Source of the DNA: a virus
Length of the DNA: 64,000 nucleotides
IMG/VR virus record: IMGVR_UViG_3300037475_000122
Span: 1-64,000 of that record
Direction: 5' to 3' (one strand)
This document shows, piece after piece, positions 943-44,842 of this stretch (position 1 is its first letter; each line of letters opens with the position of its first letter). Position numbers and translations under genes: made by a program. The notes beneath the pieces are model-generated. The model did no database searches, was not told the DNA's origin, and saw nothing but the letters and a program-made list of their open reading frames with translations.

Positions 943-970
943 TTGACCCCGGGCCTTTTTCTACAACCTT
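943..970 (+). promoter_or_regulatory. Putative phage late promoter TTGAC-N17-AACCTT, leaderless
   Basis: TTGAC 943-947, AACCTT 965-970, ATG at 976. Confidence 0.7.
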
Positions 971-975
971 ACCGC

Positions 976-1272
976 ATGGCTTTTCGCGAACTCCGGTCCC
1001 GTCAGGCGGATTCTGACAACGACTCACTCCGCAAAATCGTTGACTCTCTCGCGATTGCTCTCGGGCAACGCGGCCATGACCGCTACAGCGGCGCGACCGC
1101 TGCGACTGCCGGGGAATGGGCCATCCTCCACGCCATCGCCGCGTCAGTGGTCACAGTGATTCGCGACGGCACAAGCGAAGCCATCTCCCTCGGTGCGGGT
1201 GACCGCATTTACGGGCAGATTACGAGCGTGACCGTCACGTCCGGCGATGTCGAATTGTATCGGGTCAACTGA
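976..1272 (+). CDS. Hypothetical virion-associated protein
   Basis: ATG 5 nt after the AACCTT box; beta-rich C-terminus; stop overlaps the next start (TGATG). Confidence 0.7.
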   Translation: MAFRELRSRQADSDNDSLRKIVDSLAIALGQRGHDRYSGATAATAGEWAILHAIAASVVTVIRDGTSEAISLGAGDRIYGQITSVTVTSGDVELYRVN

Positions 1273-1415
1273 TGCAACTTCAGCTTCAAACTTTGATTAC
1301 AGTGCCCAGCGCCACGACTGGCGGGGTCGTTCCTCCACTCCCAACGAACAACCTGCTCACCGAGGGCAGTGACAATTTTGTAACGGAGGGCGGAGACAAT
1401 TTCGTAACGGAATAA
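1272..1415 (+). CDS. 47-aa protein with LLTEGSDNFVTEGGDNFVTE motif, putative tail-fibre adaptor peptide (not in ORF track)
   Basis: Translated by hand; coupled to the upstream stop; lies directly before a fibre gene. Confidence 0.6.
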   Translation: MQLQLQTLITVPSATTGGVVPPLPTNNLLTEGSDNFVTEGGDNFVTE

Positions 1416-1419
1416 CGCT

Positions 1420-3009: not shown

Positions 3010-3015
3010 TTTTTC

Positions 3016-3294: not shown

Positions 3295-3309
3295 AAACCA
3301 ACCCAACCC

Positions 3310-3591: not shown

Positions 3592-3592
3592 C

Positions 3593-3621
3593 TTGACAAA
3601 CCCGGCAGCAGGTGCTACCGT
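3593..3621 (+). promoter_or_regulatory. Host sigma70-type promoter, leaderless
   Basis: TTGACA-N17-TACCGT with extended TG, ATG 5 nt downstream at 3627. Confidence 0.65.
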
Positions 3622-3626
3622 GGTTC

Positions 3627-4096: not shown

Positions 4097-4377
4097 CTGT
4101 CACGCTTTCATATCTCAGCCGGATACTCGCCGCGCTTCCGTTGCCCAAGGCCATTGGAGAGAAGCGGGTGTTCGCGCTCACCGAGCCGCCAGTGCTGAAG
4201 CCCGGGCAGTCGCTCGAATTCGAGCCGTCGTCATTGAGTCTCGACGTAATGGTCGAAGCCGAGTGGGTCACCGACGAGAACTCCCACAACACTTTTTGTT
4301 TTTGGGTCATCGTCCCCCACAAGGAACTGAAGATTGCATTTGACTTCTGCGGCCATGGAGTGTATCGTCGGTCATGA
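4093..4377 (+). CDS. Hypothetical protein
   Basis: GTGA and ATGA coupling with neighbours. Confidence 0.55.
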   Translation: MTVTLSYLSRILAALPLPKAIGEKRVFALTEPPVLKPGQSLEFEPSSLSLDVMVEAEWVTDENSHNTFCFWVIVPHKELKIAFDFCGHGVYRRS

Positions 4378-5060: not shown

Positions 5061-5254
5061 AAGACCTCAAAGAAATCCTCGAAGACAACAAGATTCCCGC
5101 CGTCGAACGACTTCAGTCTCGTGCGCGGGCGATGAACGCGAAGAAGGTCCCCCCGACGTGTAAACGCTGCAACGGCAAGCGCCGCGTCATCCGCAAGGCC
5201 AGCCTGTTCCCCCGGGTCCCGGAGGTCGCAATCAAATGCGACGGCTGCGCTTGA
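5057..5254 (+). CDS. Small zinc-ribbon protein
   Basis: CKRC...CDGC; ATGA overlap with the recombinase stop. Confidence 0.6.
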   Translation: MKDLKEILEDNKIPAVERLQSRARAMNAKKVPPTCKRCNGKRRVIRKASLFPRVPEVAIKCDGCA

Positions 5255-5279
5255 CAAACCCTGCAAGGCGTGCAACCTT
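5251..5279 (+). promoter_or_regulatory. Putative late promoter driving the tRNA/ncRNA array
   Basis: TTGAC-N18-AACCTT; the -35 box contains the upstream TGA stop. Confidence 0.7.
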
Positions 5280-5469
5280 GTAGAGTAGTCAGACAACCCC
5301 GAAGCGACTAGACATGAACAACAAAAGCGCCAGCGGCATATCACGGAAGGAGGGTAATCCCATGAGGAACTAACCCCCGCCCCGATTGACGAACTTACTA
5401 TGAATTCTTAATCAGGAACTCAACGACGAGAAGCCTGTAGAAAGGAAGAGGGCATGAAGTCCTCCGTGC

Positions 5470-5544
5470 TGCGGGATAGAAAAGTGGTAATTTAGCGGCC
5501 TCATAAGCCGTCACGCGCAGGTTCGATTCCTGCTCCCGCAACCA
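5470..5544 (+). tRNA. tRNA-Met(CAT)
   Basis: TGCGGGA/TCCCGCA acceptor stem, GCGGC-CT CAT AA-GCCGT anticodon arm, GCAGG-TTCGATT-CCTGC T arm, encoded ACCA end. Confidence 0.9.
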
Positions 5545-5550
5545 ATTTTT

Positions 5551-5695
5551 TGGCGACGACTGAACGTAATGCCCCGATAGCTGAAACGCTAGGGGAGAGA
5601 CAACGCAAGATTTGGAAGTCGCCGAGCGGTAACGCCGGGTATGATTCCGCCCCGGCCCCGAGATACACGGGTGATTGTGTTCAATCGTTGTCTCA
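5551..5695 (+). ncRNA. Putative structured ncRNA with alternative or pseudoknotted pairings
   Basis: GGCGAC/GTCGCC, TGAACGTAAT/ATTGTGTTCA, GAGACAACG/CGTTGTCTC, a GCG-GTAA-CGC tetraloop and several hairpins; bounded by T tracts. Confidence 0.55.
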
Positions 5696-5708
5696 TTTTT
5701 GAATCAAT

Positions 5709-5778
5709 GCCGAAGGTCGGGGAGCATAGCCCCGGAGACCGCGTCAACGGTTTCTAGTGTAACAGTAGCACTGTCGGC
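5709..5778 (+). ncRNA. Circularly permuted tRNA-like element (YrlA/Y-RNA-like topology)
   Basis: GCCGA-AGGT-[CGGGG AGCATAG CCCCG]-[GAGACCG cgtcaa CGGTTTC]-TA-[GTGT AACAGTA GCAC]-TG-TCGGC. Confidence 0.65.
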
Positions 5779-5784
5779 GACTTT

Positions 5785-5862
5785 GGCCTTATCGTCTAGC
5801 GGTTAGGACATCGGCTCGCTATAGCCGAAAACCTTGGGTTCAAATCCCTTGTTAGGCCACCA
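5785..5862 (+). tRNA. Aberrant tRNA-like gene (Glu-like body, 8-nt anticodon loop)
   Basis: GGCCTTA/TTAGGCC plus ACCA; D arm GTCT AGCGGTTA GGAC; TCGGC-TCGCTATA-GCCGA; mismatched T stem around TTCAAAT. Confidence 0.65.
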
Positions 5863-5863
5863 A

Positions 5864-6054
5864 CTGTGCCCCGAGCGCGGGCCAATGACTGTGATGGGCG
5901 CGGATAAGACGGCGTCGTGCCGAATAAAACGCAGAAGTTGCAGAGCGCAAAGTCCGGCGACGGCTGGACGGTCCCTTGGCGACGGTTGAGGGATTAGACA
6001 CGGGGGAACGACCCCCACAACAGGCCGAACCTTACTAACACTGAGGCTCCGGCC
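5864..6054 (+). ncRNA. Putative multi-hairpin ncRNA
   Basis: Consecutive hairpins including GTCCGGC-GACG-GCTGGAC, TCCCTTGGC-GACG-GTTGAGGGA and GGCCG...CGGCC; no credible ORF. Confidence 0.45.
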
Positions 6055-6056
6055 AG

Positions 6057-6127
6057 AGAATCGTAGCTCAACGGTAGAGCAGCGGCCTTTTAAGCTGTTG
6101 ACGCGGGTTCGACTCCCGCCGATTCTC
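6057..6127 (+). tRNA. tRNA-Lys(TTT), CCA not encoded
   Basis: AGAATCG/CGATTCT acceptor stem, GCTC AACGGTA GAGC D arm, GCGGC-CT TTT AA-GCTGT anticodon arm, GCGGG TTCGACT CCCGC T arm. Confidence 0.88.
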
Positions 6128-6141
6128 GACTTTTAATTTTG

Positions 6142-6984: not shown

Positions 6985-7223
6985 CCGAAGGCGTCGCGTG
7001 GAGTAAAATCAATTGTCCCGGCTGCGGTCTGCCGCTTCGGCAGGTCACGAAGAACTCGCAGACGACCGCGCGGTGCGCGAACACGAACTGCCCCGGCGAC
7101 CCGGCTCCGACGCCGGACTCCCCCAACCCTCCGCCGTGGCCGACCTTGGCCGGTCGATTGGCAAACCCAATCCGGACGGACGCGGAAGCGCGTGCCCAAC
7201 TCAAAGAGTTTGGATTTTCGTAA
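6981..7223 (+). CDS. Small zinc-ribbon protein
   Basis: CPGC...CANTNC; coupled to both neighbours. Confidence 0.6.
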   Translation: MTEGVAWSKINCPGCGLPLRQVTKNSQTTARCANTNCPGDPAPTPDSPNPPPWPTLAGRLANPIRTDAEARAQLKEFGFS

Positions 7224-9127
7224 TGCTTGCTGACGGCCCACAAAAAACTCTCGTCGGCCTCGTCGCCGTCAAACTTCACGCGGGGGAATATCAAGCAGCG
7301 GCGCAACTCGTGGCGGACTGGCACACGGGCCTTACGGGAATGGTCGCGCCCGTCAACACCAAAGCGGAGCAGGACACAATCCTGACGCTGCTTCTTCGGT
7401 GGTGCCTCGAAAATGACGGCTACGAAGAGGCGGCTCAAATGCTTTGGGGCTCGACGCTCTTCGACCCTCGGCCGGAATCTTCGCAACGAGTCTGGCGCGC
7501 ATTCGAGACGCAGGATTTGATTTTGCTGATGGGCGCGGGCTCCATGTCGAAGTCTTACTCGATGGGCGTTCGACTCTTCCTCGAATGGCTTCGCGACCCG
7601 GAATACACAACCGTCCGACTCGTCGGCCCCTCCGAGAAGCATCTTGAGGACAACCTTTTTTCTCACATCGTCACGCTGCATCAGCAAAGCACGATTCCGC
7701 TGCCCGGAGTAGTGGGCAAACTCTTCATCGGTCTCGACCCGCGCAACCGGAAGTCGTCCATCTCCGGCGTGGTGATTCCCCTCGGTCAGAAGAAGGCCGC
7801 GAAGTTGCAGGGGACAAAACGTATTCAGCGCAAGGTGGAGCATCCGAAGTTCGGCCCAACGAGCCGGATGTTTATTTTCCTCGACGAAATCGCGAACATC
7901 CCCAAAGGCATTTGGCGCGACATCGACAACTTGATGACCGGCATGGGAAGCATCAAGGGTCGGCAAAAAATCATGGGGGCGTTCAACCCCACCGAGCAGC
8001 AAGACGAGGTCGGCGTGCGATGCGAGCCCAAAGACGGCTGGCAGATGTTCGACGCGGACACAGATTTCGAGTGGGTGTCGGCGCGCGGTTGGTTCGTCGT
8101 CCGGCTCGACGCGACGCGCTGCGAAAACGTCCTTCAGAAAAAAGAAGTTTACCCCGGCCTGCAAACGTTCGAGGGCTTGGAAATGTTGGCCCGCAACTCG
8201 GGCGGCATGGACTCGCCGGGCTTCTGGTCGATGGGTCGCGGTTGCTTCCCGCCCACTGGCACGCCGATGTCTGTCATCCCGGCCGGGCTCCTGCTCGACA
8301 TCCGCGCCGAGGTCATTTGGTATGAGCGCCCGGAACCAGTCGGCGGCGTGGACCTCGCGTTCGAGGGCGGCGACACAGCGGTTTTTTGCAAGGGCAGCTT
8401 CGGGCTTGCGTCCGGAATCAAGCTGATGCCGTCGCTCGCGCATCCACTCGGGCGGACCATCATGTTTAAGAATCGCCGGGGCGATGGCGCACCACGATAC
8501 CTCCTCGTTGCCGAGGTCATGATTCCAATGCCGAAGGGCGACACGCTCGTGATGAAGGATGAAGTGCTCCGGCTGGCGCGGCAGTTTTCAATCAAGCCGG
8601 AATACCTCGCCGTGGACAAGACCGGCAACGGGCAAGGCGTCTATGACATGGTCCGCCACGAATATGGCGAAATCGTCGGCGTGAACTACACCGAGGGTTG
8701 CGGCAACCAGCGCATCATGGCGGAGGACCACGCGCCCGCAGACGAGTTGTATGAACGAATCAACTCTGAACTAATGTTTGCAACTCGCAAGTGGATTGAG
8801 TTCGGTTACGCGAAAGTCGCGCCGGGCTTTCCCACCGAGAAAGTTTTTCCTCAGTTGTCCGGTCGTCGCTACAAGTCCAAAGGAAAGAAATCGGCGGTCG
8901 AGCCGAAGCCGGTCTATGCGAGCCGGAATCAAGGCAAGTCCCCCGACGAGGCCGACGGATTCACGCTCATGGTCCACGCCGCGCGCAAGGGCTCTGGGTT
9001 TATCCCCGGGATGGCGCTCGAAAACTCGACGGAGTCGCTGCCGGGGGACGATGAGGATGATGATTTTGGTGGACGAGGCGGAACTCGTATTGACGAGACC
9101 AACCGTTTTGAGGACCTTGATGTATGA
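7223..9127 (+). CDS. terL: Terminase large subunit
   Basis: Walker A-like GAGSMSKS, Walker B FIFLDE, FNP coupling motif, RNase H-like GGVDLA...AVDKTGNG...SPDEADG; ATG overlaps the upstream TAA. Confidence 0.9.
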   Translation: MLADGPQKTLVGLVAVKLHAGEYQAAAQLVADWHTGLTGMVAPVNTKAEQDTILTLLLRWCLENDGYEEAAQMLWGSTLFDPRPESSQRVWRAFETQDLILLMGAGSMSKSYSMGVRLFLEWLRDPEYTTVRLVGPSEKHLEDNLFSHIVTLHQQSTIPLPGVVGKLFIGLDPRNRKSSISGVVIPLGQKKAAKLQGTKRIQRKVEHPKFGPTSRMFIFLDEIANIPKGIWRDIDNLMTGMGSIKGRQKIMGAFNPTEQQDEVGVRCEPKDGWQMFDADTDFEWVSARGWFVVRLDATRCENVLQKKEVYPGLQTFEGLEMLARNSGGMDSPGFWSMGRGCFPPTGTPMSVIPAGLLLDIRAEVIWYERPEPVGGVDLAFEGGDTAVFCKGSFGLASGIKLMPSLAHPLGRTIMFKNRRGDGAPRYLLVAEVMIPMPKGDTLVMKDEVLRLARQFSIKPEYLAVDKTGNGQGVYDMVRHEYGEIVGVNYTEGCGNQRIMAEDHAPADELYERINSELMFATRKWIEFGYAKVAPGFPTEKVFPQLSGRRYKSKGKKSAVEPKPVYASRNQGKSPDEADGFTLMVHAARKGSGFIPGMALENSTESLPGDDEDDDFGGRGGTRIDETNRFEDLDV

Positions 9128-9699: not shown

Positions 9700-9929
9700 C
9701 CCCGCTCCGTCCTTTTCTCGCCCTCAAGGCCCTTTTTCGGGTCGTTGGGGCTCTGTTTAAACGCAAGCCGGTCTTCGTGGCCCCCGAGGTGGTCCGAAAA
9801 CGCATGTCCGCGTGCTACATGTGCCCGGATTTCGACTCCGAGGGCGAGCAATGCAAGATTTGCTCGTGTTTCGTTAGATTGAAGGCCGAACTGGCGACGG
9901 AAAAGTGCCCGAAGCATCGTTGGCCTTGA
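9696..9929 (+). CDS. Cys-rich small protein (DUF6171-like)
   Basis: RMSACYMC...QCKICSCFV..K...CPKHRW. Confidence 0.65.
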   Translation: MTPLRPFLALKALFRVVGALFKRKPVFVAPEVVRKRMSACYMCPDFDSEGEQCKICSCFVRLKAELATEKCPKHRWP

Positions 9930-9954
9930 CGGAATGAGTCTTTTCACCAACTTT
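9926..9954 (+). promoter_or_regulatory. Putative late promoter variant for the portal operon
   Basis: TTGAC-N18-AACTTT; the -35 box contains the upstream TGA. Confidence 0.6.
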
Positions 9955-14659: not shown

Positions 14660-15369
14660 AAAAGCTACTCATTGCAATCCAATTCTGGGAACGAGACAAA
14701 GAGCAAGCGATGAAAGTCGCCCGGCTCATCGCGGACCTTCAGCCCGGCTTCTGCGACCTCGCGGACTTCATGTTCGTCGCGCGCTTCGACTGTGAGCAGG
14801 ACATGAAGACCATCGAGCACGTCTCACGGAAGTTCAACGTCCATCATTTCATCAACTCGCGCTTCCGTGGCGCGGAGTGGCCGCACGGCTGCAACTCACT
14901 TTGGTTCGGCACCATGGACTACATTTTTTCCATGACCGAGGCGAAGCGCATTCCGGACTACAAGGCCGTCCTCACTTGCGAGGCGGACTCCGCGCCCCTC
15001 TCGCCCAACTGGATTTCTGAACTCAGTCAGGCGTGGGACAAGGCGAACGTGAAGGTCCTCGGTGCGATGCAGACCAACCCGGCCCCGCACGTCAACGGCA
15101 ACGCACTTTTTAGCTGCGACCTCCCGTTTCTGAAGTGGATTGCCCGGGACATCGCCGGATGCACGCCGCACGCGGGCTGGGATTTCGTTTTGGCAAACGC
15201 CTTCAAGAAAAAAGGTTGGGCGGACTGCCCGGCCATGCGGTCTTGGTGGGGATACCCTACCATGAGCAAGGAAACCTTCGACCAACTCGGCCGCGAGGGG
15301 GTCGTGTTTTTCCACGGTTGCAAGGACGATTCCATGGTCCGGCACGTCCGCGAACGGTTTGTCCCTTGA
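14656..15369 (+). CDS. Putative GT-A fold glycosyltransferase
   Basis: WPHGCN..F, LTCEADSAPL (ExD), HVNGNALF, GWD, FFHGCKD. Confidence 0.6.
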   Translation: MKKLLIAIQFWERDKEQAMKVARLIADLQPGFCDLADFMFVARFDCEQDMKTIEHVSRKFNVHHFINSRFRGAEWPHGCNSLWFGTMDYIFSMTEAKRIPDYKAVLTCEADSAPLSPNWISELSQAWDKANVKVLGAMQTNPAPHVNGNALFSCDLPFLKWIARDIAGCTPHAGWDFVLANAFKKKGWADCPAMRSWWGYPTMSKETFDQLGREGVVFFHGCKDDSMVRHVRERFVP

Positions 15370-15393
15370 CAATTTCGGCGAGGTGTGAACCTT
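15366..15393 (+). promoter_or_regulatory. Putative late promoter for the major capsid gene
   Basis: TTGAC-N17-AACCTT followed by a leader of about 140 nt. Confidence 0.7.
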
Positions 15394-16809: not shown

Positions 16810-16832
16810 GGGTTGGTCGGCCCTGACTTCAG

Positions 16833-16869
16833 AGCCGGGCTTGGACCGCAAATCCAAGCCCGGTTTTTT
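16833..16869 (+). terminator. Rho-independent terminator
   Basis: GCCGGGCTTGGA-ccgcaaa-TCCAAGCCCGGT followed by a T tract. Confidence 0.85.
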
Positions 16870-16877
16870 CTTAAACC

Positions 16878-17858: not shown

Positions 17859-17859
17859 T

Positions 17860-19208: not shown

Positions 19209-19211
19209 TTT

Positions 19212-20384
19212 ATGGCAAAAGTTTCTGATTACCCGGAAGAGCTAGGCGCAAACCCCGAGGGGTTTTTGTTCATGGCTGTTCGGCAACCGGACGGCAAGTT
19301 CAAGACGAAGAAAATCGCGCCTGACCGCGTGGGCGCGCAAGGCCCGGTCGGTCCCGGCGGCGCAACTGGCCCCACGGGTGCGACGGGCGGAGTTGGCCCG
19401 GCCGGTCCTGCCGGTCCCGCAGGCCCTACCGGCGCGACGGGCTCTCAGGGTCCCGCAGGCACGAACGGCACCAACGGAACGAACGGCACCAACGGCACCA
19501 ACGGAACGAACGGCACGAACGCGACGGTCGTCGGCGAGATTCAAAACTACGACGGCATCGTGTATGAGAATTTCGATGACTACTCCGCTGGCGCAATCGC
19601 CACTCTCGACAAGGGCCTCGGCTGGGATGACAACGGCATTTGCACCGGCGCGACCATCGTGACGAAGACCAAGGCCGGGAATGGGACGTCTCCCACGGAG
19701 AAGCGATTGTCCATCGACAACGGGGAGTATATCCGGAAAATGCCATGGGGCGACGGATGGAATCGCCTGCAAATTTTCATTCAGTTCCGCGTGGGCAGCG
19801 TGGCCGCAGCGTTCACGGGCCTCGGGTATCTCGGCATCTGTTCCGGGCAGACCAACACGGCCGGGACCGCAGCGACGGACAATTTCGTCGGCCTCGTTTT
19901 CAACAAGGGGGTCAACGGCTGGACATTTGCAAACGGCACCCGCGTGGACTACACGGGATTTGCGTCGGGTCAAACTTTCATTACTCGCCGGGGCAACACC
20001 GATTCGAGTTGGGGCGGCACCGCCGGGTCCGACGGGCGCAAGTATTCCGTCACCGAGGGCTACACGTCCATTCTGATGCTGGACCTACAGCGCCCGGTTT
20101 TTGCGAACGACGCTTCGTCCGTGAATTACGACGGCTCCGTCCGCAGCACCGATTTGACTCACGTCGAATTTTCTTCGGCGAAGACGGCCCTTTGGAACTT
20201 GCTCCACAATGACGACCTCGTTACCAGCGGTGCGGCGGTTCGCGTCATCGGAAGCGGCGTGGAAACCCCTCCGTCGGTCGCGTTCGACCAATCGACGGGC
20301 AAGCTCGATACACTGAACTTCGTCTGGCCCGTGGCCGGGAAGCAGTTTGAAATCGCCGCCATCGGCGTCCACAAACTCTATTGA
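19212..20384 (+). CDS. Collagen-like tail fibre protein
   Basis: MAKVSDYP N-terminal motif, Gly-X-Y tract with (GTN)7, C-terminal beta domain. Confidence 0.8.
   Translation: MAKVSDYPEELGANPEGFLFMAVRQPDGKFKTKKIAPDRVGAQGPVGPGGATGPTGATGGVGPAGPAGPAGPTGATGSQGPAGTNGTNGTNGTNGTNGTNGTNATVVGEIQNYDGIVYENFDDYSAGAIATLDKGLGWDDNGICTGATIVTKTKAGNGTSPTEKRLSIDNGEYIRKMPWGDGWNRLQIFIQFRVGSVAAAFTGLGYLGICSGQTNTAGTAATDNFVGLVFNKGVNGWTFANGTRVDYTGFASGQTFITRRGNTDSSWGGTAGSDGRKYSVTEGYTSILMLDLQRPVFANDASSVNYDGSVRSTDLTHVEFSSAKTALWNLLHNDDLVTSGAAVRVIGSGVETPPSVAFDQSTGKLDTLNFVWPVAGKQFEIAAIGVHKLY
19458..19520 (+). repeat. 9-bp tandem repeat encoding (Gly-Thr-Asn)7
   Basis: GGMACSAAC units seen directly. Confidence 0.9.
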
Positions 20385-20409
20385 CTCGGACCCCCGTTTT
20401 TACAACCTT
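20381..20409 (+). promoter_or_regulatory. Putative late promoter, leaderless
   Basis: TTGAC-N18-AACCTT-N5-ATG(20415). Confidence 0.72.
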
Positions 20410-20414
20410 ATTCT

Positions 20415-24068: not shown

Positions 24069-24073
24069 ACGTC

Positions 24074-26180: not shown

Positions 26181-26181
26181 T

Positions 26182-27186: not shown

Positions 27187-27187
27187 G

Positions 27188-27679: not shown

Positions 27680-27683
27680 AATT

Positions 27684-29270
27684 ATGCCCGGCATCGCCTC
27701 AGACCGTTCTCCCGGAATTCAGATTGGACCCATCGCGTCCATCGGAAGCGACATCACTCCGACGCCTGCCGTCGGCGACATGATGGATGCTTTCCGTTCA
27801 GGCTTCATCACCGTTGACGACCTGAAGAAACGCGTGAAGCAGGAGGCGTTGGACACCGACGCCATGAAGACCCAACTTCAGGCCGGGGACATTCAACGCA
27901 AGCTCGCGCCCGGCGCGGCGGAGAACGCACTCGCGCAGCAATCGCTCACGGCCGACCAAATCCGGGCCGCTCAGGCGGTTCTCCCCGGTGCCACGAAGTT
28001 GACTCTCGGCGGACAGACGCTCGCCCAACAGGAGCAGGACCGTCAGGCCGCGCTCACGAGCGACGACGTCACCATTCATCAGAAGGCCCTTGAGGACGCG
28101 ACGAAACGACAATACATCGACACGTTCGGCCACGAGCCGCCCAAGTCGATTGCGATTCCCAACCCCAAGCCGGTGGACCCGTTCGACGTGTGGCTCGAAA
28201 AGGAGCACGGTGCGGATTTGCAGAAGCGAATCAACGAATTCGACCCCGGCGTCCCGGACCCGAAGGAACTCGAAGCGACCATCACGGAGAAGGTCAACAA
28301 TTTCAAGAGTGGGTATCCGCTGAATTCCCGCGAGGACAACATCGAGCGCGCGAAGTTCGCGAACCAACTCGAAGAGCAGGCGAAGAACGTCCCCAACCCG
28401 GACGCCCTCCGCGCTCAGTTCGCCAATCAGGCCGCGCAGGAACTCCGCGAGAACCCGGCCATCCGGACTCAATACGAAACCTACAAGCTCGAACAGTCGA
28501 ACGCGAAAGACAAGGTCGTTCTCGGCACGCCGGAGCATACGGAAATCATGCGCCAGCGGATTCAGGACGCGCAGGACAAGGCCGCGCTCCGAGCCGCGAA
28601 AATCACCGCGCTTCCCAAAGTTTTGGAAGAGCAGGCGACGCTCCCCGGCAAGCTGGCTCAGAAGGAAGTGGAGAACAAAGGCAAAGCGGCAGGCGATGTC
28701 TTGCTGGAACTCCACAAGAGCGAGTCGTTGAAACGTTTCGAGCCTCAGTTCGAGGCGTTCGAGAAGGTGGACTCCATCCGCAACAGCGGCCGACCGCCCA
28801 CAAACGCCGACGACATCGCGGTTCTTTACGAGTTCGTCAAGCTGCTCGACCCCACGTCGGCCGTCCGCGAAGGTGAAGCCAAGCTCGCGCAGTCCACGGT
28901 CCCCGGGGTGAAGGCGATGTATAACAAGGTCCTCGGCCTTTTCACTGACCACAATAAAATCATGGACCCGCAGGCGCGCGAGTCGATGTTTCAGACGATG
29001 GACACCCTCCGGGACGGCGCAATCAAAACCGTCGCTCCCGAAATCAAGCGCATCTCGAACATCGCCATCGACCGGGGAGTTCCGCTCGACCAAGTTTTTT
29101 CCGGACCCTATCAGGCCATCCTCACGAAGAACGGCCGAGGTCCCGGCGCGGCTCCGGCTGGCAACCTCCCGCCCCCGGGCGGCTCCAAACGGGTCATCCC
29201 GTCGGAAGGCCCATATAAGGGCAAGACGTTGGAGTGGGACGGCGCACGGTGGACTCTTATCGGCCCTTGA
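27684..29270 (+). CDS. Internal virion / ejection protein
   Basis: Helical; D.AVLYEFVKLLDP.SAVREGE motif. Confidence 0.7.
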   Translation: MPGIASDRSPGIQIGPIASIGSDITPTPAVGDMMDAFRSGFITVDDLKKRVKQEALDTDAMKTQLQAGDIQRKLAPGAAENALAQQSLTADQIRAAQAVLPGATKLTLGGQTLAQQEQDRQAALTSDDVTIHQKALEDATKRQYIDTFGHEPPKSIAIPNPKPVDPFDVWLEKEHGADLQKRINEFDPGVPDPKELEATITEKVNNFKSGYPLNSREDNIERAKFANQLEEQAKNVPNPDALRAQFANQAAQELRENPAIRTQYETYKLEQSNAKDKVVLGTPEHTEIMRQRIQDAQDKAALRAAKITALPKVLEEQATLPGKLAQKEVENKGKAAGDVLLELHKSESLKRFEPQFEAFEKVDSIRNSGRPPTNADDIAVLYEFVKLLDPTSAVREGEAKLAQSTVPGVKAMYNKVLGLFTDHNKIMDPQARESMFQTMDTLRDGAIKTVAPEIKRISNIAIDRGVPLDQVFSGPYQAILTKNGRGPGAAPAGNLPPPGGSKRVIPSEGPYKGKTLEWDGARWTLIGP

Positions 29271-29295
29271 CGGTTGGACAGGTGAGGGGAACCTT
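29267..29295 (+). promoter_or_regulatory. Putative late promoter, leaderless
   Basis: TTGAC-N18-AACCTT-N5-ATG(29301). Confidence 0.72.
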
Positions 29296-29300
29296 CCCCT

Positions 29301-36719: not shown

Positions 36720-36862
36720 ACGCAGACTTCACACCAATCGAATTCGAGGACCTGAAGCTGACCCCCGAGGAGGCAAAACTCATCGACGTCGGCGCTAAGG
36801 TTTTCATGCAGACCGAGGACCCCCGGGACAACGAACGATTCCTTGACGCACCCAAGCCCTAA
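36716..36862 (+). CDS. 48-aa acidic protein (not in ORF track)
   Basis: MNADFTPIEFEDLKLTPEEAKLIDVG...; ATGA overlap with the giant gene. Confidence 0.55.
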   Translation: MNADFTPIEFEDLKLTPEEAKLIDVGAKVFMQTEDPRDNERFLDAPKP

Positions 36863-36871
36863 GCCAACCTT
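36843..36871 (+). promoter_or_regulatory. Putative late promoter, leaderless
   Basis: TTGAC-N18-AACCTT-N5-ATG(36877). Confidence 0.72.
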
Positions 36872-36876
36872 CTACC

Positions 36877-37443
36877 ATGCCCATCAATCTTCAGGATAGC
36901 CTTCCCCAGCCGCCCGCAGCCGCAGCCCCCGCCGATGACGAAGGGGGCGGGATTCCGGACGAGGTTTTGCAAATCCCCGCGTTCGCCGGTCTCCTCCGTG
37001 GCACTCCCCCGGCCGTTTGGGCGGAGAACGGAGTCAAGAGCCCCGAGGGGGACATCATCGTGAAGAACCAGAAGCCGCTGGCAGAGGCGGGTTTCGGCTT
37101 CTACAACTCCCCGGACAAGAAAACGAACGTCGTCTTCAACTCTCAGTTCACCAGCCTGCCCGAAATCGAGGCGATGGACAAGGCCGGGAAGCTGCGCGAC
37201 TTTGCAACCCCGATTGACGACCTCCGGGCCGCGTTTGCCGGTTCTGAAGCCCCGCCGGAGGGTGCAGCCGCCCCGCCCGCTCCCGGAGGCCCCGCCCAAG
37301 TCGCCCCCGTGCCGCCTAATGCGTCGCTGGACAAAAAGCTTGCCACCGCCCGCATTTCCAACGCTCAGCCCGGAAGCCCCACTTCCGGCCCCGTGCCCGG
37401 CCAAGGGCGCATCCTGAACTCCATCATGAAGCCAACCGTGTGA
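36877..37443 (+). CDS. Hypothetical Pro/Ala-rich protein
   Basis: Last gene of the + arm, with its own promoter. Confidence 0.7.
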   Translation: MPINLQDSLPQPPAAAAPADDEGGGIPDEVLQIPAFAGLLRGTPPAVWAENGVKSPEGDIIVKNQKPLAEAGFGFYNSPDKKTNVVFNSQFTSLPEIEAMDKAGKLRDFATPIDDLRAAFAGSEAPPEGAAAPPAPGGPAQVAPVPPNASLDKKLATARISNAQPGSPTSGPVPGQGRILNSIMKPTV

Positions 37444-39406: not shown

Positions 39407-39424
39407 GAGGGTTGGGGTTGAAGA

Positions 39425-40801
39425 TTACACCGGGGCGAAGGGCGCGGGCATGTCGTAGGGCTCGCACAAGCCGACGTTGGCAAACTTCAGTTGAATGTCA
39501 TACGTCGCGGTCTTGCCGAACTTCGGATGCACGAGGAAAAAGGTTTGCGTGGGGTCCACGGGGGAGAAACCACCGGCCAGCCCGTAGCCGTCGAGCCCGG
39601 GGAAGCCGCCGTTGACGATGAACGAGCCGCGCGCGTGCGGGAGCACAATCGAGCGGTGAAGGTGCCCGACGAGGAAGTAGTGCGGCGAAGCTTCCATGGC
39701 TTTTCCGAAAAGCTGCGCGGTGCTCGACACCATCCGGCCGACGGCATGGTTCGGAATCCCGAGGGCCTTGTCCCCGCCCTTCAGGTGGTCACCGTGCGAC
39801 AGATGGAACTTGAATCCCTGAACGTCGAACAGCGCGAACGGCTGGCGGTCGAGGTGCCATTGAACTTGCGGGATTCCTTGCGTCAGCGCCTCAATGTAGG
39901 CGTAAAGGAAATGGTCGAGGTTGCTGTATCGGTTCTCCGTTGGCATCTTGTGTTGGTGGGACCATCGGGGGTGATTCCCAACGCAGCAGTAAACGCGAAT
40001 CTTCGGGACGAGCGCGGAGAGGTTGCGGAGAAATTGCGCGATGGCGTGCCCGGCTCCGTAAAACTGTTGGAACAACGTCGAGTGTTGCCCGGCCTCAACG
40101 CCGTGATTCAGCGCGCCGTGAATCATATCGCCGCCGAGGCAAACGACGAACTCGTCGAGCGGCGTGGTCGTGTGGTCGGTCGAGATGGACCGCACCGCGT
40201 TCTCGTAGTATTTCAGACGGGCGAGGAACGTTCGGAAATCGTATCCGCCGTAGCCGAGGGTTTGGTCACCGTCGATTTTCTGGCCGACGTGCGTATCAGT
40301 GAGCATGATGAGCCCAGACTGCGCGCGGTTGCCGGGCCGGGGCTGGTTGGACGGCACGAACGGGACCGGCTGATAGCTCAGCGGGGCGAGGTCCTTTGCC
40401 AGCCCGACAAGCTGCTCGACCACGCTACCGTCACGAAGGGCGCGGTCATACTTCGCCTCAAGTTGTTTGTATTGGCGCTTCCAATACTCGCTGCTCGTCG
40501 CCTCGCGGTCCTGCTCGAACGTGGACGGCTCCACGGGAGGACGCGGAGGGCCAGAAGGACCTTGAGGGCCGCGAACTCCGCCGGGACCGGGAAGTCCGGG
40601 ACCTCCGGGGCAACCGGGCGCACCCATCGGCCCGGGGGGACCGGGAATCGAAGCTATAAAGCGCGCCTCTGCGGCAAGACGACGCCGAATTCCGCTCACT
40701 GCGGCCCGACTCTTTCCAGTGCGTAAGGCCACGTCAACATTTCGGATGCTCAGGTCTTTGACCAAGTCAAGTTGGTCGGGGGTCCAAGTCTTGTGCTTCA
40801 T
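39425..40801 (-). CDS. Calcineurin-like metallophosphoesterase with N-terminal HTH and collagen-like linker
   Basis: TDTHVG, GGDMIHG, VGNH, SHGD, VGHLH. Confidence 0.85.
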   Translation of the reverse strand: MKHKTWTPDQLDLVKDLSIRNVDVALRTGKSRAAVSGIRRRLAAEARFIASIPGPPGPMGAPGCPGGPGLPGPGGVRGPQGPSGPPRPPVEPSTFEQDREATSSEYWKRQYKQLEAKYDRALRDGSVVEQLVGLAKDLAPLSYQPVPFVPSNQPRPGNRAQSGLIMLTDTHVGQKIDGDQTLGYGGYDFRTFLARLKYYENAVRSISTDHTTTPLDEFVVCLGGDMIHGALNHGVEAGQHSTLFQQFYGAGHAIAQFLRNLSALVPKIRVYCCVGNHPRWSHQHKMPTENRYSNLDHFLYAYIEALTQGIPQVQWHLDRQPFALFDVQGFKFHLSHGDHLKGGDKALGIPNHAVGRMVSSTAQLFGKAMEASPHYFLVGHLHRSIVLPHARGSFIVNGGFPGLDGYGLAGGFSPVDPTQTFFLVHPKFGKTATYDIQLKFANVGLCEPYDMPAPFAPV

Positions 40802-41358: not shown

Positions 41359-41876
41359 TTAAAGGTCTGTTTTGCCCAATTCAGGAGGTGAACCGCATCG
41401 ACCGCATTGTCGTCCAAAATCTTATTCCTTAAGGTATCCTTTACGCCGTCTTTGTCAAGTATGTATCTCGGGTCCATCGTTAAAGCCCGGGCCATTTTGT
41501 CTTTGTCGGCGCTCCCGCTGCCCGTGGCAAACGCTTTCAGCTTGCCAGTAGAAAGACAGTCGATGTTTACACCCTGTTGACACCAAATCGCCGCGCGCCA
41601 CGTCGCCCAGAGGTGCGCTTGCATCCGGGATTTGACGAACTCGACATCCTCAAAAACAATCCAGTCGATATTGGGGAACGAGGAGCGGAATTGCTTGATG
41701 AAAATCAACAGGCGCACGAAACGCGGGTCCTGTCGCCGGTCCATTCGCTTTTCGATGGCTTCGACAATCTGCGCGCGGCTGGCGAGACTCCACGTCCCTG
41801 CGTCGTCGTTGGGGAGCATCGCATGATGCATCGCCCAGCCGGTTTTTGTCCCGAGGTCGAGCGCCAGAATGTTCAT
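41355..41876 (-). CDS. RuvC-like Holliday junction resolvase
   Basis: ILALDLGTKTGWA, VFE, LKAFATGSGSADK, DNAVDA. Confidence 0.85.
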   Translation of the reverse strand: MNILALDLGTKTGWAMHHAMLPNDDAGTWSLASRAQIVEAIEKRMDRRQDPRFVRLLIFIKQFRSSFPNIDWIVFEDVEFVKSRMQAHLWATWRAAIWCQQGVNIDCLSTGKLKAFATGSGSADKDKMARALTMDPRYILDKDGVKDTLRNKILDDNAVDAVHLLNWAKQTFK

Positions 41877-42574
41877 TGAGTCTTGCGAATGCCCCGGCGT
41901 TCGAGCCGAGTCTTCAGCGCAGCCAGAATCCCCGCGTGAATCTGCCGGACGCGTTCGCGGCTCAGCTTCGGAGTCAGAATTTTTCCAATCTCCGCGAGGT
42001 TAAAGCCTTCGACGTAATGCAGACGGATGATTTCGCGGTCCCGGGGCGAGAGCGTTTCCTCGCACGCGGCCAGTTCACCCTTCAGGAAGCCGTCATGGTC
42101 GTTCTGCTCGACCGTGGATTGCTCAACGAGTTGGTCCGGGACTCGATTGCCCGCGCGGTGCTCACCGTCGAACGGGACGCCGGGAATCCATTTGTCGATG
42201 GGAATCTCGATGGGCGGCTCGCCATGCTTGAAGTCCACGGGCGAGCGGGCGCGCCAGCAACGGGCGATTGCCGCGCGGACGTAGGGAATCAGGAAAGCAC
42301 GGAATGGGAAGCCGAGTTCAGGATTGAAACGGCCGATGGCAATCATCAGCGCCTCATTTGCCGCGCTCGTCGTCTCATCGACTGGCAACCGTCCGCCGGA
42401 GAACCGCTGGCCTAGCTTCAGCGTGTAGAGCAGATGGCGAGTGATGAAAGTTTCCCGCGCGGCGTCATCGTTCGCGAGCATTTTGCGCGCGAGGCTGAGT
42501 TCTTCTTCCGCCGTCAGAGGCGGGAAGCGCAAGTCTTCCTCGACCTTGTAGTATCGTCCTTCGTTTTCGCTCAT
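41873..42574 (-). CDS. Sigma70-family RNA polymerase sigma factor
   Basis: PLTAEEELSLA (region 1.2), LMIAIGRFNPELGFPF (region 2), LSPRDREII.L...LAEIG...LSRERVRQI (region 4). Confidence 0.9.
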   Translation of the reverse strand: MSENEGRYYKVEEDLRFPPLTAEEELSLARKMLANDDAARETFITRHLLYTLKLGQRFSGGRLPVDETTSAANEALMIAIGRFNPELGFPFRAFLIPYVRAAIARCWRARSPVDFKHGEPPIEIPIDKWIPGVPFDGEHRAGNRVPDQLVEQSTVEQNDHDGFLKGELAACEETLSPRDREIIRLHYVEGFNLAEIGKILTPKLSRERVRQIHAGILAALKTRLERRGIRKTQ

Positions 42575-44799
42575 TTTTGGAATTGGGAATTTTCCGTTTG
42601 GGGGACCGGAGGGGCGGTCGGCTTCAGAAAACGGTCTTCGCATTCGATTGTGAACACGCGGCCGTTGTCGCCTTCCGCAAGAGTCATTTTGAACATCCCT
42701 TTTTCGTGGAGTTGGAGCAGGGTCCGGGGGATGAAGTCCGGCTTGTAGCCGCGCAGCACCTCGGCGAATCCGGGCGAGGACAGCATCGAAATCTTCAAGT
42801 CGGTCGCAGAGCCGACCCACGCCTTTGCGCCCCGGGCAACGTCGGTGAAGTATTCGCCGAGCCACTTGCAAAGGATTTCGGAGAAGGCCGACACCGCGCT
42901 CGAAAGATTCGACGTGCGCTGAAGTGTCGTGTCGCAGTAAGGGGTCACACCGAACCGAGGGTCCGCGCCGTCGAGACAATGCGCGGGAGTCTGCCAGTCG
43001 AGAAGCCAGCGCGCGAACGCCGGGAGTTCCCGCTTCAGCATCTCTCTCATTTCCGTCTGTCCGAGAAATTTGATAGTGCGCGTCGCAGCGCGGAACAGCA
43101 TGAGCTTTTCCAAGATGCTGCCGTCAAGATTAGGAATCTGGTCAATAGAAACAGGGTCATCATTGCAGGTAATCACGATGCGGCCTTGCCATGGAACCAT
43201 GACGGCCTTGCGGAACTTCTCGTTGGCCCGATGCTCCCGGGAGGCAATGGCCCGCTTCACGCCTTCACTGAAAAGCCGTTTCATGGTCGCATTCGACGCC
43301 ATGCTTCCGTCATCAATGACCCAGAGCCCGGCGTCAAAAAGTTCGGAGTTGAAATTGTCGGTCTGCGTCAGGTAGGCGTTGGCCTCAGCGCATCCGCCGA
43401 CAAGCCCGCCGATGATTCCGCGATTGAGGAAGGTCTTGCCGACGTTCACCGGCCCGGCGATGATGACGCCATGTCCGCTGTGCGGGTCGCGGAGGTGACA
43501 TGACCGATAGAAGTATTGCAACCACGCGAGGAATCGTTCAAGCGGCGTCCTGTCCGGCGTGAAAAACTGCTCAAGGAACATTGAGACGAACGGGAAATCC
43601 CCGGACGCGCCCCAAGTGCCGCCGGTCAACTTCGGCTTCACCGCTTCGATGCGGTGCGTGTTCAAAATCATCTTGCCGTTGTGATTGAAAACGCCGTGGG
43701 GGTAAAACGCGCACGACGCGGCCCCGGCGACATACTGATGAAGGTCGATGAACGCGAGGGCCTTTTCGACCATCGAAACGCCTTCCTTGGGTTTCTTATC
43801 CGAGAGCCCGTGATTGACGACAAGCTGCCGCCGGAGCGTCGTCGGCTCCATGCAGCGCACCGAGTTGTCAGGCGCGGGCATGAAGTAGGCGCGGCCGTCG
43901 AAATAGATGTCTTTGACCGCCTTGCCGAGGTGCTCGTCCTCAGACCGCTCGACGAACTCCGCGCCGATGAGGTCGGCCCACGGGTAAAACGGTTTCGGAG
44001 CGTGCGCGGAGAAAGTGTAAAGCCCGGTCTCGCGAACGATGGCGGACTTGGGGGACGCTGAGCCGTCAACCCAGAACGTCGGCCCCTGCGCGCCGACAAC
44101 GAACTCCCCGGGCCACTCGTGAAAGCGGGGAAATTTCTTCCGCATCTCCTCGGCGACGCGGTCCATCGACACGGCGACCTTGCCGAGTTCCTTGGACGTC
44201 CAATCGAATTTTTCGGAGATGCGAAGAACGAATCCGCGAAGCTGCGCCATGGGGACGAGCACCTTAGACAACTGAGTCCAGCGGCATCCGTTCGTGAAGT
44301 ATTTTTCGGGAGTGATGAGTGCCGGTTTGTCGAGCCCGGGGAGACGGTCCACGGGGATTAGCGCCGAAATCTCCTTCAGCACATTGATTGCGAACCGGCG
44401 GGACGGGAAGCGCAGCGGCTCCTCAAAAAGCCAGATGAGACGGCCGTTCCCGGAGAGCGTTTGCTCAAACCAATTCGGTTTGATGTCGCCCATGATTTTC
44501 ATCGCGGCGTAAACGTCCTCAAGGGTCGTCTTGGCGTCGTAATCGACCGCCAGCCCGTGCATGAAAATCGGAGGGTTGGACGCCTCGTCGTTGTTCGTCC
44601 CGCCGTGTAAACGCAGATTGGCTTGGACCCCCTCGAAAAGGGAATAGACGTGGAAGACCGTTTCCGGGTTGTTAATCCATGCGTCGCGAGCCGCCTTGTC
44701 TGTCCGGCACTCCTCGGGCACTAACTCGAACTCCGTGAACTCCCACGGCTTCACGTCCGAGAAGATTTCGACGGAAGAAAGGTTGCGAAGGTAAAACAT
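42571..44799 (-). CDS. Primase-helicase (prim-pol N-terminus plus DUF5906/SF3-like ATPase)
   Basis: AVDYD, GPVNVGKT Walker A, FNS, VIDD, ITCND. Confidence 0.8.
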   Translation of the reverse strand: MFYLRNLSSVEIFSDVKPWEFTEFELVPEECRTDKAARDAWINNPETVFHVYSLFEGVQANLRLHGGTNNDEASNPPIFMHGLAVDYDAKTTLEDVYAAMKIMGDIKPNWFEQTLSGNGRLIWLFEEPLRFPSRRFAINVLKEISALIPVDRLPGLDKPALITPEKYFTNGCRWTQLSKVLVPMAQLRGFVLRISEKFDWTSKELGKVAVSMDRVAEEMRKKFPRFHEWPGEFVVGAQGPTFWVDGSASPKSAIVRETGLYTFSAHAPKPFYPWADLIGAEFVERSEDEHLGKAVKDIYFDGRAYFMPAPDNSVRCMEPTTLRRQLVVNHGLSDKKPKEGVSMVEKALAFIDLHQYVAGAASCAFYPHGVFNHNGKMILNTHRIEAVKPKLTGGTWGASGDFPFVSMFLEQFFTPDRTPLERFLAWLQYFYRSCHLRDPHSGHGVIIAGPVNVGKTFLNRGIIGGLVGGCAEANAYLTQTDNFNSELFDAGLWVIDDGSMASNATMKRLFSEGVKRAIASREHRANEKFRKAVMVPWQGRIVITCNDDPVSIDQIPNLDGSILEKLMLFRAATRTIKFLGQTEMREMLKRELPAFARWLLDWQTPAHCLDGADPRFGVTPYCDTTLQRTSNLSSAVSAFSEILCKWLGEYFTDVARGAKAWVGSATDLKISMLSSPGFAEVLRGYKPDFIPRTLLQLHEKGMFKMTLAEGDNGRVFTIECEDRFLKPTAPPVPQTENSQFQK

Positions 44800-44812
44800 G
44801 GGTTGCTTCAAC

Positions 44813-44842
44813 AAGGTTCCACAAAGCAGGGTGCTTTGTCAA
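44813..44842 (-). promoter_or_regulatory. AACCTT-class promoter upstream of the primase/sigma operon
   Basis: TTGACA-N18-AACCTT on the - strand. Confidence 0.55.

Follow-up and report, generated by a model that had tools for sequence, protein, structure and literature searches.

Results

Genome organisation and the phage sigma gene

The window analysed here is the first 64,000 nt of the record IMGVR_UViG_3300037475_000122, a CheckV-complete viral genome of 74,142 bp from an uncultured soil phage group with genomes of roughly 70 kb. A tblastn search against 50,697 phage records retrieved no GenBank phage relatives of the group. The genes, whose starts come from a simple in-house caller, form two convergent arms. 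The minus arm spans 73.2 to 37.4 kb and carries replication genes together with numerous small genes; the large terminase gene marks the plus arm as the structural and packaging arm. The following genes are central to the analysis:

7223..9127, plus strand: large terminase gene
41873..42574, minus strand: sigma-70 family gene (233 aa)
42571..44799, minus strand: primase/helicase-like gene (742 aa, DUF5906 domain), directly upstream of the sigma gene

The ATG of the sigma gene overlaps the primase stop codon (ATGA). The encoded protein matches phrog_351 (sigma factor) and contains regions 1.2, 2 and 4. PF00140 passes its curated cut-off in region 1.2, region 2 scores 28.5 bits with PF04542 (cut-off 24) and 69 with TIGR02937 (cut-off 42.9), and region 4, which carries the motif LSRERVRQIH, scores 46.9 bits with PF04545 (cut-off 24.1). 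The canonical 4.2 motif RERVRQI noted by the first-pass annotation is thus present. In the AF2 model the sigma2 helices (residues 22-110) have a pLDDT of about 90. A sigma3 domain was not found: PF04539 gives no match and residues 111-154 are disordered in the model, without a helical domain. PF04539 is absent from all close family members and present in the cellular matches. From its resemblance in sequence and fold to sigmas whose structures were solved within holoenzymes, the protein is predicted to bind core RNA polymerase and to direct promoter-specific initiation. Neither equivalog assignment applies, with 67 bits for RpoS (TIGR02394, cut-off 379) and 61 bits for RpoH (TIGR02392, cut-off 323).

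HMMER aligns the stretch FRAFLIPYVRAAIARC of the phage protein to FSTYATWWIRQTIERA of E. coli RpoS. Pro-Tyr occupies the positions of W433-W434 of sigma70 and Ala that of Q437, replacements that had been read as a rewiring of -10 recognition. The replacements themselves are real. Loss of the W-W dyad, however, is shared by the entire family and usual in alternative sigma factors, and does not indicate a special rewiring of this protein.

A stringent predicted promoter class, TTGAC-N17/18-AACCTT

Sites of the AACCTT class in the window are listed here, with the two variants last:

943..970, plus strand: cccTTGACc-N16-AACCTT, then N5-ATG of a 98-aa gene (976-1272)
5251..5279, plus strand: precedes 850 nt of non-coding DNA in which three tRNA genes lie (5470-5541, 5785-5859, 6057-6127)
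15366..15393, plus strand: followed by a 145-nt leader and a 423-aa gene (15538-16809), the probable major capsid protein gene
20381..20409, plus strand: followed by N5-ATG of gene 20415-20744
29267..29295, plus strand: followed by N5-ATG of the gene for a 2472-aa virion protein (29301-36719)
36843..36871, plus strand: followed by N5-ATG of 36877-37443, the final gene of the plus arm
9926..9954, plus strand: variant TTGACG-N17-AACTTT, ATG 13 nt on
44813..44842, minus strand: TTGACA-N18-AACCTT, 13 nt ahead of the primase/helicase ATG (44799)

The first-pass annotation had described the six exact plus-strand sites (943, 5251, 15366, 20381, 29267 and 36843) and both variants, AACTTT at 9926 and a spacer longer by 1 nt at 44842, as well as an AACCTT at 624 without a proper -35; all were recovered. 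Six exact copies in the window compare with 0.06 expected, and none of 100 shuffles reached this number. The whole genome holds nine copies (0.11 expected; maximum 2 in 300 shuffles), with two further exact ones beyond the window at 73260 (TTGAC, minus strand) and 73550 (plus strand). When all 5-mer/6-mer dyads were ranked in an unanchored search, TTGAC..AACCTT came first (9 versus 0.38 expected, P 4e-10). All nine copies are oriented with their downstream genes and share an identical -10 hexamer. The -35 flank reads cCTTGACn and the TG extension is absent, in agreement with the lack of sigma3 in the phage protein. A generic sigma-70 promoter scan called none of the AACCTT sites and did call TG-bearing early sites, and the sequence ahead of the -35 elements showed no conserved site of the activator type. 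In six of the nine copies the arrangement is AACCTT-N5-ATG (P about 2e-10), so that the corresponding mRNAs would be leaderless; the first-pass annotation had not remarked on this.

Several sites have additional features. At 943 the -35 is part of a hairpin (918-932 / 941-955), with TTTTT after it. The gene behind the 9926 site (9968-12133, 721 aa) comes after the large terminase gene, and the probable capsid gene ends at a strong terminator (16835-16869). The spacer of the 44842 site contains a perfect palindrome, CAAAGCA-ccc-TGCTTTG, and this site heads the translationally coupled primase-sigma-RuvC genes.

Overall the class heads units for tRNAs, packaging, capsid, tail, the giant virion protein, the first genes of the minus arm and the primase-sigma operon. 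The label "late" originally given to it is therefore too narrow for the class, which also precedes replication genes through the primase-sigma-RuvC operon, besides the tRNA array and the first minus-arm genes.

A separate canonical promoter class

An early class with TTGACA, proposed earlier as distinct, was confirmed at about 15 sites of the form TTGACA-N16/17-(G/T)AnnnT, most of them carrying TGTGc immediately before the -10; 13 of the sites are on the minus arm. The consensus is AT-rich-TTGACAA-N12-TGTGc-(G/T)AtAgT-N6-ATG, with a -35 flank of tTTGACAA, and mostly early genes follow. Eight further sites lie beyond the window, and those within it are:

61933..61961, minus strand: representative promoter aaataaTTTGACAAC-N12-TGTGC-GATAGT-N6-ATG
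49551..49579, minus strand: TTGACA-N16-CACAGT with TGTGg upstream, then N5-ATG (49546)
38154, 38863, 59229 and 63395 (TTGAC), minus strand: other sites of this class
3593 and 4340 (TTGAC), plus strand: other sites of this class

The two classes also differ in their -35 flanks, which the first-pass annotation had not pointed out, and are distributed unequally over the arms (Fisher P = 0.003). Hybrid hexamers (TACCTT, TACCGT, GACCTT) are present and blur the border between them. The promoter at 49551..49579 sits immediately after a terminator (49619-49588). No other canonical promoter lies closer ahead of the genes for DNA polymerase, primase and sigma, and the first sigma transcripts therefore likely originate here.

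The -10 element changes among related phages

The sigma family forms about 61 clusters at 50% identity and is confined to phages; a search of GTDB species genomes gave no member. Thirteen complete genomes of related phages were retrieved, all of 68-74 kb and with the two-arm layout seen here, and every one carries exactly one such sigma. Each of them keeps the canonical leaderless (T/G)AnnnT class unchanged. The -10 of the AACCTT-type class, in contrast, is genome-wide and genome-specific: GGACCTT in G012 (13 sites), AACTTT in G011, CACTTC in G001, G002 and G014, and AACCTCTT in the G008 group. The exchange extends to orthologous promoters. Those of the capsid gene (15366; orthologues in 12 relatives) and of the 20381 type keep the -35 and have the -10 swapped to the variant of their own genome, and the aligned promoters also retain spacer or leader; the G012 orthologue of 20381, for example, has a conserved spacer and GGACCTT as -10. 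A -10 that changes throughout the genome, even at orthologous promoters, while the early class stays constant argues for a reader encoded by the phage.

The -35 is a different matter. The host-like TTGAC had been attributed to the canonical region 4.2, and this explanation is weakened by relatives with the 4.2 helix SRQAVHAAH or REAIRxxH, in which the orthologous promoter of the capsid gene still has TTGAC(A). Such constancy is unexpected if the 4.2 helix alone reads the -35. G001-type relatives also have a third motif class.

A promoter of the AACCTT-type class lies upstream of the sigma gene and shares its strand in G000, G002, G011, G012 and G014, and in G001 too if this DTR genome is read as circular. 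Autoregulation of the sigma gene through this promoter is thus plausible from the gene order.

Discussion

We consider it probable that the phage sigma and the AACCTT class form a cognate pair that switches the host polymerase, with feedback. The comparative -10 swaps make the pairing proposed by the first-pass annotation the best explanation of the data; of the points that accompanied it, strict lateness did not hold up and the 4.2 argument is weakened. In the mechanism that we envisage, the host primary sigma would use the canonical minus-arm promoters, TTGACA-17-(TGTGc)(G/T)AnnnT, at once. Transcription from 49579 would cross the genes for DNA polymerase, primase and sigma, so that the phage sigma is made. 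As expected for a member of its family, this two-domain protein (sigma1.2/2 plus sigma4) would bind host core RNA polymerase, and the resulting holoenzyme would read cTTGACn-16/17-AACCTT. The promoter of this class on the primase-sigma operon may then close a positive feedback loop. At six copies the start codon would form the 5' end of the mRNA, which would be translated leaderless, as in the early class. The data show the motif with its statistics and positions, the domains of the sigma and the comparative pattern; which polymerase form serves which class, and where and when transcripts start, is what we infer.

A host alternative sigma could instead read the AACCTT class, with the phage sigma serving elsewhere, for example at a middle class or as a regulator decoy. 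The invariance of TTGAC across phages with differing 4.2 helices would fit such a reader, and the third motif class of G001-type relatives needs a reader too. However, the late -10 varies among related phages and the canonical class does not, which would require in each host an alternative sigma whose main difference lies in a single position. Exactly one sigma gene is present in all complete genomes of the group, and we know of no described bacterial sigma consensus that fits TTGAC-N17-AACCTT. We therefore regard this reading as improbable. We judge it similarly improbable that the sites are weak promoters of the host primary sigma, switched on by a phage activator or a polymerase modification rather than by the phage sigma. 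Counted from the ATG, the element is nAACCT, with -11 still A and -7 still T; its -35 resembles that of the host, and hybrids such as TACCTT exist. Primary sigmas, though, read promoter positions -10 to -8 weakly, and the nine hexamers are identical at these positions too. The lack of a conserved activator-type site upstream of the -35 also speaks against weak host promoters, and the genome-wide swaps in the relatives call for a factor that reads the -10 by its sequence.

The fixed distance of 5 nt between AACCTT and ATG in six copies might suggest a signal for translation, packaging or recombination rather than a promoter. This is very hard to credit. One copy precedes tRNA genes (5251), where the motif cannot be a translation signal for want of a downstream ATG, and another precedes a 145-nt leader. 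TTGAC is required 17-18 nt away, a fixed -35/-10 geometry, and placement near the ATG is shared by the canonical class (N6-ATG).

The cognate pair favoured here can be compared with several known systems. The best sequence (E about 1e-11) and Foldseek (E 2e-7) matches of the phage sigma are RpoS/RpoH (group 2/3; PDB 5ipl, 8hkc), with which it has region 1.2, region 2 and the 4.2 motif RERVRQI in common. It differs from them by the lack of sigma3 and by region 2.2 (ETTSAAN) and region 2.3-2.4 (P-Y-V-R-A-A). The -35 of sigma32 promoters is CTTGAA, which cTTGAC resembles. ECF (group 4) sigmas use very stringent, near-invariant promoters and have the same two-domain build of sigma2, linker and sigma4. 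Unlike these, the phage protein has region 1.2 (PF00140), is nearer in sequence to RpoS/RpoH than to ECF models, and has no evident anti-sigma partner. T4 gp55 is another sigma for phage late genes, and its -10-type element is likewise unusual. It consists of sigma2 only, does not read a -35 and needs gp33 and the sliding clamp, whereas the phage sigma has a full sigma4 and its promoters carry a -35.

Both the -35 and the -10 of SPO1 promoters depart from the host type, whereas here the -35 stays TTGAC and the transcripts would be leaderless. The systems are otherwise alike in a sigma-70 relative, a phage-specific promoter class and host-type early promoters. In this Bacillus phage gp28 (middle) and gp33/gp34 (late) replace the host primary sigma on the core enzyme (PMC13401047). 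No sequence relation of the SPO1 proteins to the phage sigma was detected by tblastn (50,697 phage records), and the same search did not retrieve the sigmas of phiEco32 (gp36) and phage 7-11 as relatives. For these two phages genome analysis found few, near-identical promoters (Guzina and Djordjevic 2015, PMC4331800). They share with the present phage a two-cluster genome and host-type promoters for the early cluster, but their motifs (tAATGTAtA; TGATGT) are single -10-like elements without a -35 (PMC4331800). They are also cultured phages of enterobacterial hosts, with experiments for phiEco32.

A further, tentative and rather doubtful extension is that the -35 and an A-C-Y-T core are fixed and that the phages hold a series of orthogonal sigma/-10 pairs, in which the residues equivalent to sigma70 437/438 would set the -12 base (Ala-Ala with A, Gly-Arg with G, Ser/Gly-Glu with C). 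Residues and base match in about four lineages only, and in the G008 group they do not. If true, it would provide a readable -12 recognition code and a ready-made orthogonal promoter set, and sigmas without the Trp wedge and sigma3 would still set the start exactly on a leaderless ATG.

The switch from early to late transcription by a phage sigma is already known, and the genome analysis provides well-supported reasons to regard the present system as a new example. To our knowledge only a handful of phage sigmas that retarget the host polymerase have been characterised, all from cultured Bacillus and enterobacteria phages. The family described here is a new, phage-only one from uncultured soil phages. 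For the present genome the predicted regulatory map is wholly legible from sequence: early promoters of canonical type with leaderless starts, a sigma operon that has its own feedback promoter, and a stringent second class that combines a host-like -35 with a new -10. The natural -10 variants at orthologous promoters would make -10 recognition without the Trp dyad and sigma3 directly testable.

Genome organization and the phage sigma factor

The record, of which the window forms the first 64,000 bp, comprises 74,142 bp with a GC content of ~0.60 and is rated complete by CheckV. Our own codon-bias gene caller places ~108 genes on two convergent arms.

Principal genomic features (coordinates; strand or arm; feature)
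638 to 37443; plus; plus arm with large terminase, 2472-aa virion protein and 423-aa capsid candidate
7223-9127; plus; large terminase (PHROG match)
73226 down to 37424; minus; minus arm with many small genes plus RNA ligase, helicase and exonuclease
44849-46864; minus arm; family-A DNA polymerase
42571-44799; minus arm; DUF5906 primase/helicase
41873-42574; minus arm; sigma gene
overlapping the primase-sigma series; minus arm; RuvC-like resolvase

ATGA overlaps join the primase gene to sigma and sigma to RuvC, which makes the three translationally coupled. Most genes downstream of the promoters described below had no match in Pfam and PHROGs. The gene downstream of the sigma operon (39425-40801, minus strand) gave sub-threshold, weak matches to a collagen repeat and a calcineurin-like phosphoesterase.

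Judged by sequence searches, the phage is without relatives among 50,697 GenBank phage records. Neither megablast with the 41-45 kb region of the window nor tblastn with the capsid candidate matched phage records, and tblastn with the sigma returned only matches of ≤34% identity in gut metagenome contigs and cellular RpoH/RpoS. IMG/VR searches with the sigma, as a single query or as an alignment (A1), found nothing, and a primase query likewise returned no closer relative; an IMG/VR scan for the motif described below plus ATG gave single chance matches among those listed, none of which encodes the sigma. The metagenome scan recovered only one 100%-identical fragment and one 1.4-kb contig. The run search listed only soil metagenomes as containing phage DNA, all of them DNA runs, and no RNA runs.

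The 233-aa sigma scores above the curated cut-offs of Sigma70_r2, r4, r1_2 and TIGR02937, gives no region 3 match, and lies far under the RpoS and RpoH equivalog cut-offs. AlphaFold2 confidently models sigma2 (residues 22-110) and sigma4 (155-226) with a disordered linker between them; among solved structures, sigma32, sigmaS and SigA come closest. HMMER aligns FRAFLIPYVRAAIARC of the sigma to FSTYATWWIRQTIERA of RpoS, corresponding in sigma70 numbering to Y430F, W433P, W434Y and Q437A with R436 kept, and region 4.2 reads LSRERVRQIH. This agrees with the first-pass annotation, which had claimed a retained RERVRQI motif and the loss of the WW dyad and the Gln. For sigma70 it is well established that Q437 and T440 set the -12 pair and that W433/W434 act as the melting wedge.

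A word-based search identified 14 close homologues (48-86% identity), all metagenomic, followed by a gap and then cellular RpoS/RpoD at E ~1e-12. Among 1.8 billion representatives, a profile search yielded 61 clusters at E < 1e-30, and no relatives were found in GTDB species genomes with a further alignment (A2). Family members inspected are mostly ~200-250 aa long and share the motifs (D/N)E(V/T)xSAAN in region 2.2 and RFxxYLxPF(I/V)RGxIxxLW(R/K) in regions 2.3-2.4; the P-(F/Y) in the latter indicates that replacement of the W-W pair is a family trait. Searches with the terminase and with the sigma profile led to 13 more phage genomes (~59-74 kb), which share the two-arm layout and are 93-100% complete save G003 at 81%; each encodes exactly one family sigma.

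A recurrent TTGAC-AACCTT motif

TTGAC-N17/18-AACCTT (L class, sites named by their TTGAC coordinate) occurs six times in the window, at 943, 5251, 15366, 20381, 29267 and 36843 as first annotated, all on the plus strand, compared with 0.06 expected from shuffles. Two further exact copies lie in the remaining 10 kb (TTGAC at 73260, minus, and 73550, plus), and with the N19 copy at 44842 (minus) the genome total is nine, against a mean of 0.11 and a maximum of 2 in genome shuffles. Motif discovery, proposed as a check at the outset, points the same way: among all 5-mer/6-mer pairs spaced by 15-19 nt, searched with no sequence anchor, TTGAC..AACCTT ranks top in the genome (9 copies against 0.38 expected, P 4e-10). 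The other variants initially noted, at 9926 and 624, are present too.

Copies, variants and one-mismatch sites of the L class (position; strand; description)
970, 20409, 29295, 36871, 73578; plus; hexamer ends of copies with N5-ATG
73232; minus; hexamer end of copy with N5-ATG
5251; plus; 850 nt of non-coding DNA downstream, including three tRNA genes
15366; plus; 145-nt leader downstream
44842; minus; 13 nt ahead of the primase ATG
9926; variant, AACTTT
624; variant, poor -35
9090; one mismatch, GACCTT
23965; one mismatch, AACCTA
41458 and 61657; minus; one mismatch, TACCTT

All nine copies are oriented like the genes downstream, and in 6/9 the hexamer is followed by N5-ATG (binomial P ~2e-10). 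What lies downstream of the other three copies, at 5251, 15366 and 44842, shows that the motif does not act in translation. The label 'late' is too narrow; the class also serves the first minus-arm genes, the tRNAs and the primase-sigma-RuvC operon. The element could be read either as AACCTT with a 5-nt discriminator or as nAACCT (A at -11, T at -7) with an 18-bp spacer.

Pairing of AACCTT with the 16S rRNA 3' end was considered and rejected: the hexamer matches the CCUCC tail in sense rather than complementing it, and it would be upstream of the transcript.

Hybrid hexamers also occur. TACCGT and TATCGT, with N5-ATG, are found in two structural-arm promoters (3593-3626 and 4340-4373), and TACCTT at 41458 and 61657 joins T at -12 to the ACCTT core. 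Both forms of the polymerase may be able to use these sites.

Two likely promoter classes with apparent leaderless starts

The separate early class originally described as TTGACA plus a TANNNT-like hexamer is recovered as ~15 aligned sites, mostly on the minus arm (E class).

Comparison of the two promoter classes
Form: L, gccC-TTGAC-n, 16-17 nt, AACCTT, N5, ATG (9 copies); E, AT-rich, tTTGACAAc, ~12 nt, cTGTGc, (G/T)AtAgT, N6, ATG (~15 copies)
-10 hexamer: L, identical in every copy; E, varies within (G/T)AnnnT
TG at -15/-14: L, 2/9 copies; E, usual, as TGTGc
Base following TTGAC: L, free; E, A
Second codon: L, GCx/CCC; E, AAx

The E class has the textbook form of primary-sigma promoters, with a TRTG-type extended -10. 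The classes divide between the arms (E, 13 on the minus and 2 on the plus arm; L, 7 on the plus and 2 on the minus strand; Fisher P 0.003), and a generic sigma-70 scanner calls the E sites having TG but no L site. To our knowledge, a TG extension is unreadable by a sigma lacking sigma3; the absence of sigma3 from the phage protein and of the TG extension from most L sites thus fits a pairing of the two. Alternative sigmas without the melting residues reportedly need near-consensus promoters, and the identical L hexamers likewise fit a sigma that has lost these residues. We rejected the converse assignment, in which the phage sigma would read the E class and the host would use AACCTT, because the TG extension of the E class requires sigma3 and because this class heads small early genes.

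A strong terminator (49619-49588) is directly followed by an E promoter at 49579. No strong terminator was found between this promoter and the sigma gene, so early read-through could supply the first sigma.

In the E class the ATG lies exactly 6 nt past the -10 in ~15 promoters (38154-63395, minus, and on to 71403), with AAx (Lys/Asn) as second codon in nearly all cases. The fixed N5 (L) and N6 (E) distances suggest that both classes start transcription on or beside the start codon, and both appear from this spacing to yield leaderless mRNAs. Where genes do have a leader, it is A-rich, as in AAAAACCAAAAA, and lacks any Shine-Dalgarno match. Translation of leaderless and SD-less mRNAs is probably efficient in the host.

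Divergence of the second promoter class among relatives

The canonical leaderless class, TTGACA-17-(T/G)AnnnT-N5/6-ATG, is kept in every relative examined. The second class varies between genomes and is uniform inside most of them; its -10 elements have A-C-Y-T as a common core, and in each genome it is carried by the structural arm.

Second-class promoters in related phage genomes
G012: cTTGAC-N17-GGACCTT(T), 13 sites
G011: TTGACA-AACTTT, 5 sites
G001, G002, G014: TTGACA-N16-CACTT(C/A), 10, 8 and 7 sites
G008, G009, G013, G015: TTGACA-N16/17-nAC(C/T)TCTT, ~5-7 sites each

A second-class copy lies upstream of the sigma gene, on its strand, in the present genome (G000) and in G002, G011, G012 and G014. 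Orthologous capsid-gene promoters keep cTTGAC, and G011 and G012 also keep the transcribed CACAGAGCTAA; their -10 reads AACCTT in G000, GACCTT in G012, AACTTT in G011 and CACTTC in G001, G014 and G010. Similarly, the promoter at 20381 shares the spacer TC(G/A)GACCCC..TTTTTAC with the corresponding promoter of G012, and the two differ in the -10.

We compared the -12 base with the residues equivalent to sigma70 437/438. Ala-Ala (residues 101-102 of the G000 sigma) goes with A, Gly-Arg with G (G012), Gly-Ala with A (G011), and Ser-Glu or Gly-Glu with C (G001, G002, G014, G010); the G008 group has Gly-Ala with a mixed -12. This tracking, over ~4 independent lineages, is suggestive only. The -35 of the capsid-gene promoter is TTGAC(A) in 12/12 relatives, 6 of which have SRQAVHAAH or REAIRxxH as 4.2 helix. 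The first-pass attribution of the host-like -35 to the canonical 4.2 helix is therefore not secure, as relatives with other helices keep TTGAC(A).

On the early arm, G001-type relatives have one more, third type of motif, TTGACA-N16-CACTGG(T/G)A (G001 9644, 10572, 63877, 67620, 71701; G002 16234-34332), and the spacers are near-palindromic (TTTTCGAAAA); in G014 its upstream element is CTTAACA. No counterpart was found in G000.

The capsid candidate and other elements

The 423-aa gene (15538-16809, plus) probably encodes the major capsid protein. It is 67-82% identical across the group, far above the 53-59% of the terminase and the 30-38% of the sigma, and is rich in invariant Cys. A separate promoter and a 145-nt leader serve this gene, and the terminator behind it (16835-16869) is the strongest of the genome. 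It matched nothing in Pfam or PHROG, the Atlas lead is weak (Phage_capsid_3 on 13% of one cluster), and its AlphaFold2 model is of low confidence (pLDDT 37). Predicted folding of the leader is no stronger than that of shuffled sequences (z -1.2).

tRNA-model matches under the 5251 promoter (5280-6130), with structured spacers between them
5470-5541: Met
5785-5859: weak, 38.6 bits
6057-6127: Lys

A perfect 7-bp palindrome, CAAAGCA-ccc-TGCTTTG (44819-44836, minus), fills the spacer of the primase-sigma operon promoter and could be an operator or a hairpin ending the DNA polymerase transcript. At 918-960 a hairpin (GGCCCGGGACCGAGG / CCTTGACCCCGGGCC) followed by TTTTT contains the -35 of the 943 promoter, so that a terminator-like element overlaps this promoter. 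In an AT-rich gap between two divergent AACCTT promoters at the arm junction lies a 45-nt inverted repeat (73353-73507; 78% complementary, 65 nt apart), a possible origin, packaging site or control region.

Discussion

The L motif is very likely a promoter class; a non-promoter role is highly improbable. The best explanation, which we consider likely, is that the class is read by the phage sigma. The rivals are recognition by a host alternative sigma and use by the host primary sigma with a phage activator. In the relatives the -10 changes in concert genome-wide while the canonical class stays constant, which points to a phage-encoded reader, and the sigma is the only candidate seen for this role. 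We regard both rivals as unlikely.

With the phage sigma as reader, the switch would work like those of phiEco32 and 7-11 (PMC4331800) and of SPO1 (PMC13401047). The type of switch is thus already known; what is new is the sigma family and its consensus, in an uncultured phage group. The most useful feature of the system is the set of natural -10 variants among the relatives.
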